This document shows, piece after piece, positions 10,424-42,689 of a stretch of DNA of 42,836 nucleotides. The notes beneath the pieces were generated by a model that had not been told where the DNA came from, did no database searches, and saw nothing but the letters and a program-made list of their open reading frames with translations. Position numbers and translations under genes: made by a program. Within the stretch, counting starts at the first letter, position 1, and each line of letters starts with the position of its first letter. This DNA is from a virus (lineage: Duplodnaviria > Caudoviricetes): the IMG/VR virus record IMGVR_UViG_3300037313_000201, positions 1 through 42,836 of that record; one strand, written 5' to 3'.

Positions 10424-10720
10424 TTGGCGGGGGATAGCATGGATGCGGAAAGCCGCGTGAAGCTGGCCGAAATCGGCGGCGACATTAAGCGCATTTTCGA
10501 CTTCATTACAAGGCAGGCACAGGATCAGGCGCGCGTCGATCAGCGCTTGAACCACCATGGTGAGCGCCTTACCGCAGTCGAAGCCCATATCAACAAGAGC
10601 GCTGGCGAAGCGCAGGGCGTTGGTAAGACGGTGAAGGTTATGTGGGCCGTACTTGGCGGCTCAGGCGGCGTAATCGTGGCGGGCGTTGCCGCGATCATCG
10701 CACGGGCACAGGGGTTGTAA
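10424..10720 (+). CDS. Holin-like membrane protein (coiled coil plus C-terminal TM)
   Basis: Strong SD GGGGGAG, C-terminal hydrophobic helix, immediately upstream of the endolysin. Confidence 0.55.
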   Translation: MAGDSMDAESRVKLAEIGGDIKRIFDFITRQAQDQARVDQRLNHHGERLTAVEAHINKSAGEAQGVGKTVKVMWAVLGGSGGVIVAGVAAIIARAQGL

Positions 10721-10724
10721 ACAT

Positions 10725-11222
10725 ATGGGATGCGTTACTCGGGTACTGCCGCACAAGTTCAAGCTACCGGCGCTCGGCACGCCGCGCGTAATCACGATCC
10801 ATTGCACGGCAACGCCGGAAGGTAAGCACTTTTCGGCTGAACAGATTGTCGCCATGGACGTGCAGACGTACCACCAGCCCTCGTACCACTACGTTGTAGA
10901 ACTCGACGGCTCTATCGTGAAGTGCCTGACGCTTACCGAAAAGGGTGCGCACGTACGGAACCACAATACCAGCAATATCGGCATCGGCTATGTTGGCGGT
11001 GTGGACGTGCCCGGTAAGAAGGGCAAACCGAAGGACACGCGCACCCCGGACCAGAAGGCGGCGCTGCGCGCGTTGGTCGCGGAGTTGCGCCGGGGGTACA
11101 AAACCATTACCACCGTCAAGGGTCACAGGGATTGGTCGCCCGACCTTGACCATGACGGCGTAATCGAACCGCACGAGTGGATGAAGGTCTGCCCGTGCTT
11201 CGACGTGGCGACACAACTTTAG
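10725..11222 (+). CDS. Endolysin, N-acetylmuramoyl-L-alanine amidase (T7 lysozyme-like)
   Basis: Zn-amidase motifs HCTAT, YHY, GAH, GHRD and KVCP. Confidence 0.9.
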   Translation: MGCVTRVLPHKFKLPALGTPRVITIHCTATPEGKHFSAEQIVAMDVQTYHQPSYHYVVELDGSIVKCLTLTEKGAHVRNHNTSNIGIGYVGGVDVPGKKGKPKDTRTPDQKAALRALVAELRRGYKTITTVKGHRDWSPDLDHDGVIEPHEWMKVCPCFDVATQL

Positions 11223-11235
11223 GGGAGTACGGAAC

Positions 11236-11412
11236 ATGCAGGGTAAGTTCAAAGGGTACAAGACGTACATCGTGGCGGGCCTCGCTATTCTCGGCGCGGT
11301 CGCGGGGTACCTCGACGGCGACCTCGGCAAAGTGGCGGCGGGGCAGGCCATTCTCACGGCGGTCCTCGGGGTCACGATCCGCCACGGGATCAAGACGGAC
11401 CTCGCCTCTTAA
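11236..11412 (+). CDS. Small 2-TM holin-like protein (58 aa, not in ORF track)
   Basis: MQGKFKGYKTYIVAGLAILGAVAGYLDGDLGKVAAGQAILTAVLGVTIRHGIKTDLAS with SD AGGGGAG, directly after the endolysin. Confidence 0.7.
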   Translation: MQGKFKGYKTYIVAGLAILGAVAGYLDGDLGKVAAGQAILTAVLGVTIRHGIKTDLAS

Positions 11413-16750: not shown

Positions 16751-18934
16751 TTACTTACCGTACCGGACCATTTCAGCGCCTTCCGCTTCCACCGGCAGGT
16801 CCGTAATCCACGGTGGTAGCATACACATAAGCTGTACAAGATGGTCGCTACTGCCGAAGCCGTCGTCCGGCAACGTAATAACTTCGTCGTGTACTAGCCC
16901 AACAACCGGGTATCCGGCTTCGTCAACGTTCAAAGCCCCAATCGCGCACACGTCACGCGCCGTGCCCTGAACAATGTTTTCAACTAGCTTTCCGCCGTAA
17001 GTATCCTCACGGTAAGACTTGCCGCCCCACTCCGTACGGAAACTCAGCTTCTCGACTGTACGACCAAATCGTTCCCCAAGCCGAATTTTCGGTCGGTAGT
17101 AAGCAATATGGCGTCCGCTCGGCAGAGTGCAAATAAGCCAGTACCGTTCGGTGTCAAGCCGATGTACATGGAAAGTAACACCGGTACCGGTAAGCCCGAA
17201 CTGTTGCCCCTCATTAGCAGTGGCGAGTATTGCGGCTTTTTCCACGCGCGCCCATATGCCAGTTGTGTAGTCGGCAATCTCAGGGTGAGCGCCCCTGTAC
17301 TTTTTGACAATTTCATCGGCTTCCTCGCGTGAAATAATCAAGTCAATGTTATCACAGTACTCCACGAACGTGCGACCGCCGACGCCGAAGCCGCAACCTA
17401 GCTGCGCGGACTTGGCTTTCTGCCGGTGGCCTTCCCATTGTTTGAGTACTTTGGGCTTGCCGTTCTTGATTGTAATGCAATCCTCATACGATCCCATCAA
17501 CTGCGGATACATGTACTGCGCCGCGAACCGGGTGTACACGTCGTCACCGTTGCGAAACGCTTCCAGTACCCATAGGCACCGGGCGAGCCATACCAGCACG
17601 CGCGCTTCGATCTGCGCGTAGTCGCCTGACACAATCCGCGTGCCCTTGGGAGCCGCGATAAACCCCCTCATAGCCTTCGCCAGAGCGCCTAGGGGACGCG
17701 GGAAGCGCAGTCCGGCCTCAAACACCCATTCAGGGATCGCGGGCATTTCGTCGAGCGGCGGGCCGCCGTTATGGCCCACCATGCCGGGGTTGCTCCACCA
17801 CGGCCCTTCTAAGTACTCGAAGATCGCTTTCAGTACGGCCATATCAGGCCGGGTGAAATTCTGCGGCTGGATACGCTTGGCGCTCCACCGTAGCGTGTGC
17901 GCGCCGCCGTACAGCAGCAACCCGCGAGCGCGCCCGTCGCTATCCGTACAGCGCACCATGGCGTCTAGCTTCTTGATCGACGCTTTTGACGTTTCAAGCC
18001 GTATGCTGATTACGTCCTGCAAGTCGGCGGGCAAGTCGTCAAGCACCACGCGCTTTAGCGTCTTACTGCGCAAATCGCCTAGGTCGTCAATTTCCTCACG
18101 TTGTTTGATGTACTCAAGTATCTTATCGCGCTGTGTGGGGTTGACGCCTGTAATCTCGTTGAACCGGGCAGTATTGATTTGCGTGTAGTACTCCGAGAAC
18201 TGTATGGCGCGCTTTACAGATACGGTATCAATAGGCAGACCCCGCGTGTTAATGCGAAAGTCCAAATCCCACACCCGTTGCTCGAAATCAGGTAAGTCAG
18301 GTAATACCCTATCAATGCCATGCTCAGTAAGAACATCGTCAATGCAATAAGCCTTACCCTTCGCGTATAGTTCCGGCTGTTCATGTGGTTCATACCACAT
18401 TTCCTTGATTATGCCTAGTTTCTTCGCGCCCTTGTACTTACGCGGCTTGCAGAAGTTGTTTATGAACTCCTTGCCCGCTTCGTTCTTTAGGAAGTTCAGT
18501 TCAAGGTCACTTGCGGAGCCTTCAAGACTGGCGCGGATACCCCAATACCGCGACCGGGCGGCAGTACATGACCAATGCCGGGGCATGGGCCAGCCCCACT
18601 GACATACCAAAATCCAGAACGCAATCGCCTGTTCGAACCGCGCATTGTGTGCCACGAACTTGTCGCCGCGCTCGTGCGCCTCATGCCACCAATCGGGGCA
18701 GGGCGGCTTGTACGAGTTCAGCAGTAGGCTGTCCGGCTGTTGCGCCGGGAAGCGCGTTGCCGCGTAATCTGGATCGGCGAAGAAGTCGAGCAGCCCCGGC
18801 AGCATGTCTTTGCCGTCCGTGAAATGTGCGAGCATTAGGGGGCTTGTACTAAAATGTTGTGCGTAGGCGTCCCCGCCGATTTTCGGCAGGTCGGCCAGCG
18901 ACCGTGTTTCAAAGTCTAGGTGAGTTCGGTACAC
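16751..18934 (-). CDS. DNA polymerase family A with 3'-5' exonuclease
   Basis: Exo motifs LDFETRS, VAHNARFE, YCIDDV. Pol motifs A GDYAQIEARV, B RQKAK...LGCGFG, C VHDE. GTG start with SD GGGAAGG. Confidence 0.95.
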   Translation of the reverse strand: MYRTHLDFETRSLADLPKIGGDAYAQHFSTSPLMLAHFTDGKDMLPGLLDFFADPDYAATRFPAQQPDSLLLNSYKPPCPDWWHEAHERGDKFVAHNARFEQAIAFWILVCQWGWPMPRHWSCTAARSRYWGIRASLEGSASDLELNFLKNEAGKEFINNFCKPRKYKGAKKLGIIKEMWYEPHEQPELYAKGKAYCIDDVLTEHGIDRVLPDLPDFEQRVWDLDFRINTRGLPIDTVSVKRAIQFSEYYTQINTARFNEITGVNPTQRDKILEYIKQREEIDDLGDLRSKTLKRVVLDDLPADLQDVISIRLETSKASIKKLDAMVRCTDSDGRARGLLLYGGAHTLRWSAKRIQPQNFTRPDMAVLKAIFEYLEGPWWSNPGMVGHNGGPPLDEMPAIPEWVFEAGLRFPRPLGALAKAMRGFIAAPKGTRIVSGDYAQIEARVLVWLARCLWVLEAFRNGDDVYTRFAAQYMYPQLMGSYEDCITIKNGKPKVLKQWEGHRQKAKSAQLGCGFGVGGRTFVEYCDNIDLIISREEADEIVKKYRGAHPEIADYTTGIWARVEKAAILATANEGQQFGLTGTGVTFHVHRLDTERYWLICTLPSGRHIAYYRPKIRLGERFGRTVEKLSFRTEWGGKSYREDTYGGKLVENIVQGTARDVCAIGALNVDEAGYPVVGLVHDEVITLPDDGFGSSDHLVQLMCMLPPWITDLPVEAEGAEMVRYGK
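18214..18393 (-). CDS. Candidate overprinted 59-aa membrane protein inside the polymerase (+1 frame)
   Basis: SD AAGGAA 7 nt before ATG. MNHMNSRNYTRRVRLIALTMFLLSMALIGYYLTYLISSNGCGIWTFALTRGVCLLIPYL. Local T-ending codon skew in pol. Confidence 0.5.
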   Translation of the reverse strand: MNHMNSRNYTRRVRLIALTMFLLSMALIGYYLTYLISSNGCGIWTFALTRGVCLLIPYL

Positions 18935-18951
18935 GCCCGCTGGCCTTCCCG

Positions 18952-19173
18952 TCAGAACTTGCCGGTGTTCAGGAAGTTCGCCGCCGCCGCGCACGCATCC
19001 GCCGTATCGGTCGCCACAGCCTCGAAAGACTGCGCCACCTTGACCGTCTGCGTGGCCTCGATCACGTACCGGATATTCCCGGCTAGTGCGAAGCCGTTGC
19101 TCACCTGACGCACGTTCACGTCATAGTGCGGCACGGTGCCCGCGATTGCTTCCTGAAACGTTGCTTCGTCCAT
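18952..19173 (-). CDS. Hypothetical protein
   Basis: SD AGGA, high-GC codon usage. Confidence 0.6.
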   Translation of the reverse strand: MDEATFQEAIAGTVPHYDVNVRQVSNGFALAGNIRYVIEATQTVKVAQSFEAVATDTADACAAAANFLNTGKF

Positions 19174-28824: not shown

Positions 28825-28898
28825 GTACAGTACTAGAGTGAGCGCCGGGGCCGGGGTGGGGAGTTGGGAAAGCCCCGGCGCTCGCTGTAGTACTGCAC
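28825..28898 (-). other. Long intergenic hairpin (~27 bp) with C-rich loop
   Basis: Arms 28825-28851 and 28872-28898 are near-perfectly complementary. Confidence 0.75.
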
Positions 28899-34485: not shown

Positions 34486-34664
34486 GGCAGTGTTCGGCCT
34501 GTAATCGAAAACCGTGCGTTTGTAACGACGCAAACGGGCCTAAGCAGCCGTACGAGGAACCGTGCGATCATGATTACGACGAGGACGAGGACGCGGCTGA
34601 GTTCGTTTGCGTACTTTGTGGTGATCGTGAGCCTATGCCTCTTGATCGGATAATGCGTCAGTAA
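34482..34664 (+). CDS. Small acidic Cys-rich (Zn) protein
   Basis: CSAC..PCVC, CDH and CVLCG motifs. TAATG coupling to terL. Confidence 0.55.
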   Translation: MRQCSACNRKPCVCNDANGPKQPYEEPCDHDYDEDEDAAEFVCVLCGDREPMPLDRIMRQ

Positions 34665-36169
34665 TGGACGAGGAGGCGCAAACCTCTGTATTTACTCCAT
34701 GGGAGCCGCAACCGGGGCCGCAAAGTCTCGCAATCGCCGCGCATTTCGTCACCGAAATCATGTACGGTGGTGCACGTGGTGGCGGTAAGTCAGACTTCCT
34801 GCTTGGCGACTTCTTACAGGACGTGTGGCAGGGTGCGAAATGGCGCGGGATCATCTTCCGGCGTTCGCACCCGGAACTCGAAGAACTAATTACACGTGCG
34901 CAGGAAATTTACATTCCGCTAGGTGCGGTGTGGAAGGCCAGTAAGAGTACCTTCATCTTTCCGTCCGGTGCAACGCTCAAAATGCGCCACGTGGAAACGG
35001 AAGAGGACTGTAATAAGTATCAGGGCCACCAGTACACGTGGATCGGCTGGGACGAACTTACCAACTGGCCGAACCTTAAGTCGTACAAGAAGCTAAAGGC
35101 GTGTTTGCGCTCCGCAGGCAACGTCCCGAACAAGCGCATACGCTGTTCCGCCAACCCCGGCGGTGTCGGCCACCATGAAGTCAAAGAGTACTTTGTGGAC
35201 CCGGCACCGAAGGGCATGGAACTCATTACGAATACCGACGAGGACGGGTTCCAGACGACGAAAATGTTCATCCCGTCGCGGGTGTACGACAACAAGAAAT
35301 TGCTAGACAACGATCCGGGGTACATTGCACGTTTGCGCGAGATTGGTTCGCCCGAACTCGTACGTGCATGGTTGGAAGGTGACTGGAATGTTATTACTGG
35401 TGCTTACTTTCCTGAGTTTAGTACTGCTAAGCATGTGCTTGAGCCTTTTGAGATACCGGGTCACTGGCTCCGATTTAAGAGTGCTGATTGGGGTACTGCT
35501 TCTCCTTTTTGTGTACTGTGGCACGCTGTCAGCGACGGCTATCAAGTACCGGGTGGACCGTTTATCCCATCTGGTGCAATCGTTACGTACCGTGAGTTCT
35601 ACGGATGGAACGGACACGCTAATCAGGGATTAAGGTGGCCCGCCGCGCGTGTCGCGCAGAACGTCGTAAAGATGGAAACTGCCGCCAACGAGAATGTTCC
35701 TACCAGTCCGGTGCGCGTAACCTACGGTGTGATCGATCCTGCCGCGTACAAGCAAGACGGCGGCCCCTCGGTTGCTGAAAGTATGGCCGTTAACGGTGCG
35801 TACTTCCGCAAGGCGGACAATCAGCGCATCAACGGTTGGAACCAAGTACGCGAGCGTCTGTGCGGAGAGGACGGCGACCCTGAAAAGGATAACGGCGTCG
35901 GCACTCCTATGTGGTATGTGTTTAAAACATGTACGCATATCATCCGTACACTACCGGCGTTGCAACATGATATAAACAACCCGGAAGATTGCGATACGGA
36001 CGGCGAGGATCACGCCCCGGATGCGCTGCGCTACGGCCTCATGTCGCGCCCGTGGAAGAGGAAGAAACCGGCGAACGATCCTCTGCCACCAAAGACCTTG
36101 CAGAATATCACTATGAATGACATTTGGGAAGCAACCGATGCGCGGGATACCGCGTACTCGCAGATTTAG
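34664..36169 (+). CDS. terL: Terminase large subunit
   Basis: PQPGPQ, GGARGGGKS, WIGWDEL, SANPGG, SADWG and EDHAPDALRYG motifs. Confidence 0.95.
   Translation: MDEEAQTSVFTPWEPQPGPQSLAIAAHFVTEIMYGGARGGGKSDFLLGDFLQDVWQGAKWRGIIFRRSHPELEELITRAQEIYIPLGAVWKASKSTFIFPSGATLKMRHVETEEDCNKYQGHQYTWIGWDELTNWPNLKSYKKLKACLRSAGNVPNKRIRCSANPGGVGHHEVKEYFVDPAPKGMELITNTDEDGFQTTKMFIPSRVYDNKKLLDNDPGYIARLREIGSPELVRAWLEGDWNVITGAYFPEFSTAKHVLEPFEIPGHWLRFKSADWGTASPFCVLWHAVSDGYQVPGGPFIPSGAIVTYREFYGWNGHANQGLRWPAARVAQNVVKMETAANENVPTSPVRVTYGVIDPAAYKQDGGPSVAESMAVNGAYFRKADNQRINGWNQVRERLCGEDGDPEKDNGVGTPMWYVFKTCTHIIRTLPALQHDINNPEDCDTDGEDHAPDALRYGLMSRPWKRKKPANDPLPPKTLQNITMNDIWEATDARDTAYSQI
35388..35633 (+). CDS. Overprinted 81-aa two-TM membrane protein inside terL (+1 frame)
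   Basis: SD GGAAGGTGA 5 nt before ATG. T-ending terL codons are concentrated under the two hydrophobic segments. Confidence 0.65.
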   Translation: MLLLVLTFLSLVLLSMCLSLLRYRVTGSDLRVLIGVLLLLFVYCGTLSATAIKYRVDRLSHLVQSLRTVSSTDGTDTLIRD

Positions 36170-42422: not shown

Positions 42423-42689
42423 ATGCGTAAGTCAATTCTTCTCTGTACGGTATCGTGTGCAGCGCTTGCCGTGTCGGGCTGTACGCACATGACCACCGCG
42501 CAGAAGGTGGACTTCGGCTGCGAACTCGCCGTACTTGCGGCACAGACGACCGGCACTGTCGCTCAGGTGGCTGTGCAGCATGGCGCGGACCCGGCGAAGG
42601 CGCAGAAACTGGCGGATCGTGCCGCCGCTGGCGAAAGCGTCGTTACCGCTATCTGTCTGACGGCCAACGCCGTCACGCCGGAACTGTAA
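42423..42689 (+). CDS. Lipoprotein (spanin or exclusion candidate)
   Basis: MRKS, hydrophobic core, lipobox VSG-C. SD AGGGGGTG. Confidence 0.7.
   Translation: MRKSILLCTVSCAALAVSGCTHMTTAQKVDFGCELAVLAAQTTGTVAQVAVQHGADPAKAQKLADRAAAGESVVTAICLTANAVTPEL

Follow-up and report, generated by a model that had tools for sequence, protein, structure and literature searches.

A probable young membrane-protein gene overprinted on the DNA polymerase gene of a soil phage, and similar frames in other conserved genes of its clade

An open reading frame (ORF) of 59 codons, running from ATG to TAA at 18214-18393 of the minus strand and shifted by +1 relative to the family A DNA polymerase gene (pol) that contains it, is very probably a real gene under selection, probably young and functional. 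The initial annotation had proposed at this place a hidden membrane protein overprinted on the polymerase, and the proposal was supported by a local excess of T, by the intact frame in a relative of 89% identity and by a clade-wide pattern of comparable ORFs.

The window, i.e. the stretch of DNA analysed (42,836 nt), is the whole 42.8 kb record of an uncultured phage from soil, with a 142-nt repeat at each end. By PHROG annotation, the minus strand carries the replication genes as an operon (primase-helicase, exonuclease, SSB, family A polymerase and helicase) and the plus strand those of the virion. The host gene pol covers 16751-18994 of the minus strand (PHROG 17, E 6.6e-79); its frame is open from 18994 and its likely start is the GTG at 18934. 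No close annotated phage was found, the best identities being 34% for pol, 57% for the capsid protein and 42% for terL. The capsid matches were to phages of Bradyrhizobium, Stenotrophomonas and Myxococcus (52-57%) and the lysin matches to Bacteroides phages (42-44%), and two clade contigs are contained in bins of Alphaproteobacteria and Burkholderiaceae. Residues 404-415 of the window polymerase (about 17750-17785) hold a GHNGGPPLD insert, where short DNA matches from other organisms accumulate among the Logan contig matches listed; the insert is presumably linked to alphaproteobacterial proteins. A 27-bp inverted repeat, 89% complementary with a spacing of 20 nt, was detected in the early region at 28825-28898.

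The coordinates 18214-18393 of the initial annotation were correct. It had named no strand; the plus strand is full of stops there, and the minus strand is open for 59 aa. Translation verified the +1 frame relative to pol, whose codons 201-260 underlie the ORF, and AAGGAA-7 nt-ATG, RRVR, a 22-residue hydrophobic run (residues 15-36) and an apolar tail were all found as claimed. The SD-like AAGGAA (18401-18406, minus strand) lies 7 nt before the ATG and is encoded by Lys-Glu codons of pol. The basic RRVR (18352-18363) precedes the helix, and the net charge of the peptide ahead of the helix is +4; from these basic residues, the N-terminus is predicted to be inside. The transmembrane helix predicted at residues 15-36 (18286-18351) has a KD19 of 1.94 and is a helix in the AlphaFold model as well. 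It overlies the YCIDD motif of pol, which we take to be exonuclease motif III, and the Y192 and D196 columns of this motif are invariant in 65 aligned polymerases. A second, weaker apolar helix covers residues 43-59 (18217-18267; KD19 1.4, and 1.7 in the relative). The AlphaFold model, a single-sequence prediction with a pTM of 0.43, consists of two helices, 3-39 and 43-58. A weak hairpin of 7 bp, the loop of which contains the AUG (18383-18400), is absent as a general feature of other embedded ORFs, and an AUG hairpin was rejected as a common control device (z of -2.1 in the window and 0.11 in the relative, mean of +0.42 over 18 ORFs). The T-rich part of pol at 17044-17316 (minus strand) contains another +1 ORF of 90 aa with GAGGAAG 3 nt before its ATG; this ATG is missing in L009, and the ORF is probably not a gene.

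Third-position T, the local elevation of which had been set as a check, peaks in pol on the ORF itself: 24 of 60 codons end in T, the maximum of the gene, versus 19% gene-wide (0.19), and 13 of the 22 codons at pol 215-236 do so. Among 3000 synonymous shuffles of pol, 13 of 22 was reached anywhere in 19 and 24 of 60 anywhere in 20. An ATG-started ORF of at least 40 aa, led by an SD of 5 bases and matching the pol ORF in hydropathy, arose in one of these shuffles at the strict thresholds, which were derived from the observed ORF, and in 28 at looser ones (SD 4, KD 1.6). Another T-rich stretch of pol, codons 586-660, is without a comparable ORF. When 22 genes of the window were scanned, SD-led hydrophobic embedded ORFs were found only in pol and terL.

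The full comparison at 85-90% identity comprises one lineage, represented by a single IMG/VR contig (recorded as L001, L009 and G015; pol 89%). The contig retains the ATG, AAGGA of the SD-like sequence, the 59-codon frame, the same stop and the helix; it has a KVKR region in place of RRVR and two Leu-to-Arg changes at the edges of the helix. Where the residue is the same, the relative retains T-ending codons at 18 of 23 sites within the ORF versus 45 of 103 elsewhere in pol (p 0.005), and the difference was smaller against the N-terminal half of pol alone (18/23 vs 22/43, p 0.04). Synonymous divergence across the ORF overall was not clearly below that of the N-terminal half of pol. Under simulated neutral synonymous drift, all the features were retained in 0.1-0.8% of 20000 runs. 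Logan contigs in three sequencing runs carry L001-like changes over the start region and look like the same lineage, not an independent one; this comparison covers differences away from the contig ends, with the ATG itself outside the view. Among the matches listed, runs X9 and X10 represent a further lineage with the stop codon lost and the Leu-to-Arg change at the helix end, the start region of which did not align. Two further scans for close relatives returned already known loci alone.

More distant loci date the ORF. Thirty-eight clade loci were examined, one of which was unmapped and one of which was L009 itself, and the ORF was present at the homologous site in none of the remaining 36 (54-66% identity, some duplicates). 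The conservation check posed by the initial annotation, which would have the frame closed in relatives if the idea were wrong, was answered in two ways: the 89% relative keeps an open frame and the ORF is missing at 54-66%, an absence by which it is dated as young and not refuted. The putative gene is young and has a narrower distribution than pol. In one of these loci, L039, the SD and ATG are shared but the frame behind them is hydrophilic, which means that SD and ATG prove little alone; the start signals are cheap, being provided by pol's own codons, and the selected feature would be the run of T. In four further loci (L023, L055, L056, L058), a different +1 frame overlaps this part of pol; it is open and weakly hydrophobic, starts from an ATG eight codons upstream (codon 168 of pol in the 723 numbering) and extends to 103 codons in L055 and L056. 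Homologues of the peptide were found neither in IMG/VR, nor among 5.8 billion proteins, nor in PHROGs; an exact look-up in a collection of 15 billion proteins gave no match, and Pfam returned only DUF7472 at E 0.094. The 11 runs listed, of which four could be sources, were all DNA from soil or rhizosphere, with no RNA dataset among them.

The sister ORF in terL (34664-36169) provides a second case within the window. It has 81 codons and two helices, lies in the +1 frame at 35388-35633 of the plus strand, is SD-led and lies over a T peak higher than any other in the genome. The ORF is intact in L002, L004 and L005 and was lost in L003, which is 92% identical. The T codons were kept where the ORF is intact (24 of 32 in L004, 29 of 33 in L005), and the 12 of 32 kept in L003 equal the background; the loss in L003 is a natural control for T retention. 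An insertion or intron in the terL genes of L002 and L004 was considered and rejected, the signal being a weak second tblastn match.

That the terL-embedded ORF points to a repeated strategy, as the initial annotation suggested, was supported, and the pattern proved broader, extending over pol, helicase and terL of the clade. A +1 SD-ATG ORF of at least 40 codons with a KD19 of at least 1.9 was found in 8 of 27 clade polymerases including the window's, with 0.25 expected; the count leaves out L009, L048 and L056 as close kin, and likewise identical copies and genes shorter than 400 codons. Unrelated +1 membrane ORFs at other sites were thus carried by 7 of the 26 other polymerases, and since L048 has no match, 7 of 27 without the window is the fairer figure. 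The +2 frame of the 27 polymerases had no such ORF. Outside the clade, none was found in 20 polymerases (p 0.014) or in 8 helicases, and one of 6 terL genes carried an ORF, that of the nearest outside relative. This gene, the terL of MW202489 (L132), is the nearest annotated terL relative, and its hydrophobic SD-led +1 ORF at codon 115 is unannotated. Carriers do not group together in the pol tree but are scattered over it, with sisters having no ORF or an ORF elsewhere.

The window and 16 other clade records (G001-G016; three of the 17 incomplete) were also scanned gene by gene. Embedded ORFs were observed in pol of 7 of 17 records (0.22 expected), in helicase of 4 of 17 (0.0), in terL of 6 of 15 (0.15) and in the capsid gene of 2 of 12 (0.18), where pol and terL had been chosen beforehand from the finding and helicase was included after data inspection. 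None occurred in 16 portal, 14 primase, 15 exonuclease and 13 SSB genes. Five of the 17 records were without any embedded ORF, and the sole match of G013 is outside the core genes. Common sites were determined for helicase in G001 and G005 and in G002 and G016, and for terL in the window, G002 and G014, which use the same start site, and in G010 and G011; not all the ORFs are therefore independent. The helicase ORFs at these two common sites, SD-led and hydrophobic, lie at L074:2824-3039, L087:6549-6737, L076:7321-7587 and L116:15272-15430. Across sites, the embedded peptides have no common sequence, and the membrane ORFs of the clade suggest a series born independently, in which viruses keep inventing genes inside old ones. 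Room for hydrophobic frames was rejected as the cause of the hot genes, the primase and several virion genes having equal room.

A simpler reading, in which there is no gene and the hydrophobic frame is a by-product of a T-rich patch (mosaic DNA, mutation bias or a DNA/RNA signal), is considered quite unlikely. It gains from T peaks without an SD-ATG, which exist in the clade and in outside genes among the rows listed, and from the confinement of the ORF to one narrow lineage. With every T fixed, the window ORF was moreover open in 23% of shuffles, a per-ORF probability in which selection for open frames introduces a bias. Against it stands the composition of the excess. In pol, helicase and terL, 20 T peaks were counted versus 5.8 expected (13 versus 10.3 in other conserved genes), whereas the peaks of A and G were near expectation and those of C were 7 versus 3.3. 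Within 18 embedded ORFs, T reached 513 versus 349 expected and A was not raised, whereas the flanks gave 145/169 and 172/171, so that the T excess ends at the ORF ends. At four-fold sites T was up (253/146) and G, C and A were down (100/156, 118/154 and 99/114, respectively). An excess confined to T, with G, C and A all reduced in exchange, argues against both an AT-rich mosaic and a C-to-T bias. In one case, an ORF embedded in the capsid gene, there was no T excess. The number of SD-led ORFs also exceeded the null that retains T: 16 were seen in 47 pol, helicase and terL genes, compared with 0.37 under free shuffles and with 5.5 (maximum 9 in 200 rounds) under T-fixed ones. Among start-bearing hydrophobic frames, an SD was present in 16 of 19 in pol, helicase and terL versus 3 of 16 in other conserved genes. 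The release of T where the terL ORF was lost speaks against the by-product reading as well, as do the lack of an internal promoter (0 found) or promoter consensus at the pol ORF and the lack of repeats at the site among those listed.

Access to the frame by +1 frameshifting from pol, which would yield a membrane-anchored exonuclease domain, appears highly improbable. The SD-like sequence is just upstream, and the frame starts near the end of the exonuclease domain, the boundary of which we place near the ORF start. However, the +1 stops at codons 193 and 195 of pol would confine such an event to five codons, among which there is no slippery run, and every sibling ORF has an SD and a start of its own, at a site unrelated to the others.

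An overprinted gene under selection, the preferred reading, has several known counterparts. The features of de novo overprinted genes were found here, namely start signals in the other frame, a narrower distribution, no homologues and a synonymous constraint on the host gene, the last in one lineage pair. Gene E of phiX174, an ssDNA phage, is the only lysis gene there and is fixed within the group. It is described as a +1 overprint in which third-position T of gene D becomes second-position T and thereby encodes a transmembrane helix (PMC8227390). The pol ORF has the same T-shift design; unlike E, it is young, resides in a dsDNA phage with an amidase and holin-like genes, and has no sequence match. 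The Sgl genes of ssRNA leviviruses are described in PMC7693330 as SD-led transmembrane ORFs in the +1 frame of the replicase gene, born de novo at many positions and sometimes more than one per genome. The sequence criteria used there (an SD, at least 25 codons, a predicted transmembrane domain, the +1 frame of the replicase) are all found in the pol ORF. Lysis depends on the Sgl genes, most of which occupy variable regions of the replicase; in contrast, the pol ORF covers invariant pol residues and its phage has an endolysin. An Sgl-type sole lysis gene without endolysin was therefore rejected, Amidase_2 being present.

Among dsDNA phages, T7 has annotated hypothetical +1 genes, 4.2, 4.1, 19.2 and 19.3, inside its primase-helicase and terminase genes. 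The gp4.2 product is hydrophobic (KD19 2.33), whereas 19.2, 19.3 and 4.1 are not strongly so (1.12, 1.02 and 0.26, respectively), and no marked T peak was found in any of them. A low-essentiality score has been given to 4.2, according to PMC11482910. The T7 record annotates no nested gene inside its polymerase gene. Its embedded o-spanin 18.7, within 18.5, is likewise membrane-targeted and in the +1 frame of another gene. Rz1 in Rz of lambda is also an embedded o-spanin. Such o-spanins are lipoproteins within the partner gene, whereas the window peptide has no lipobox and lies in pol; the o-spanin (Rz1-type) assignment was rejected on the absence of a lipobox match in a genome-wide scan and on the host gene. 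A holin was also rejected: the peptide has no PHROG match and only the DUF7472 hit in Pfam, and its ORF and the amidase gene are some 7 kb apart and on opposite strands. T4 Imm and HK97 gp15 are small membrane exclusion proteins. These, together with MgrB-type regulators, resemble the pol peptide in size, in the basic N-terminus and in having one or two helices; they are, however, stand-alone genes, with no recognised homology to it. MgrB was the nearest ESM Atlas cluster at 0.83, a score within the range attained by one in three shuffled proteins, and membership of the MgrB family was rejected with no PF13998 match at E 0.1.

As to function, the young overprinted gene may encode a small inner-membrane peptide which alters a host envelope protein and shields the infected cell from competing phages. 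This exclusion role is our tentative preference, somewhat short of probable, and functions of the exclusion type take up about half of the likelihood given to the gene being real. The K-E-x-W-Y codons of pol would provide the SD and ATG nearly free. Switching of third positions to T would bring T to the middle of the +1 codons and create the hydrophobic helix with the polymerase unchanged. Ribosomes would then initiate at the internal site on the mRNA of the replication operon, and the peptide would insert N-in, with its basic end inside, and act on a host envelope protein. Hydropathy and the single-sequence model are compatible with a predicted small inner-membrane protein, and the ORF sits in the replication operon, apart from the stand-alone lysis cassette. 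The siblings' lack of a common sequence and their fast turnover suggest a job open to many hydrophobic peptides; genes of this kind would appear, be of use against a particular host or rival, and then be lost. According to PMC12557735, random hydrophobic 51-aa proteins readily confer phage resistance via envelope responses; the Rip proteins localised there were two, both cytosolic. The choice of pol, helicase and terL over primase or exonuclease is left unexplained by exclusion.

An accessory part in lysis, as an Sgl-like inhibitor of wall synthesis, a holin modulator or a spanin stand-in, is a rather unlikely alternative. The design does agree with that of phiX174 E and of the +1 replicase Sgl genes (PMC8227390, PMC7693330), and a genome-wide lipobox scan and PHROGs recognised no spanin in the window. 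Embedded ORFs in pol, helicase, terL or the capsid gene were present in one of the four spanin-bearing records and in 10 of the 13 others, a split which was not significant (p 0.10); in addition, no lysin was located with the queries used in seven of the 13 spanin-less records, and G005 combines a spanin with three embedded ORFs. The window also has its own lysis genes, which form a stand-alone cassette at 10424-11412 of the plus strand: a holin-like ORF, an amidase (Amidase_2 at 10725-11222, E 8.6e-17 in Pfam) and another holin-like ORF, as judged from hydropathy, position and Pfam, the two presumed holins being so named from hydropathy and position. Location in pol would moreover suggest expression alongside the replication genes. 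The content of lysis cassettes elsewhere in the clade (L073, L076, L087, L092, L096, L110, L117) is variable in endolysin type, holin and spanin. In the virion operon of the window, an 88-aa lipoprotein-like ORF (42423-42689, plus strand) without a PHROG match or a counterpart in other clade records could be an unrecognised outer-membrane lysis protein.

Counter-defence encoded inside the very gene sensed by the host, with trigger and antidote expressed and inherited jointly, is doubtful to about the same degree as a lysis role. It would account for the concentration of the ORFs in pol, helicase, terL and the capsid gene, for which hydrophobic room is no explanation, and an arms race would be in keeping with the fast turnover. 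According to PMC13581612, Avs receptors respond to family A polymerase, terminase and capsid protein. That work also names the portal and the RecA-fold primase-helicase as triggers, yet these genes hold no ORFs (0 of 16 and 0 of 14, respectively), and the peptides lack a common sequence across sites. A wider version, in which the third codon positions of pol, helicase and terL would serve the clade as a permanent source of new membrane peptides that come and go over a few per cent of protein divergence, each disarming the defence that senses its enzyme, seems less likely still.

In tiny RNA phages, where it is required for lysis, the repeated de novo origin of membrane genes through overprinting has been documented. 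This signature is seen here in a clade of 40-kb dsDNA phages with ordinary lysis genes and spare room, and in their most conserved enzymes. The pattern was not found described for dsDNA phages in the literature consulted, the coverage of which leaves most subscription papers outside. Gains and losses between close relatives form a natural series for the study of gene birth, and about twenty short unrelated peptides are suited to synthesis and assay. The ORFs are also a warning that such genes are missed by gene callers, and they may be a lead on the long-unexplained nested genes of T7 such as 4.2. Finally, three clade records carry a stand-alone two-helix gene of 54-57 aa immediately 5' of pol (L083:16348-16518, L100:58-231 and L115:8981-9145), the first of which matches phrog_23151.
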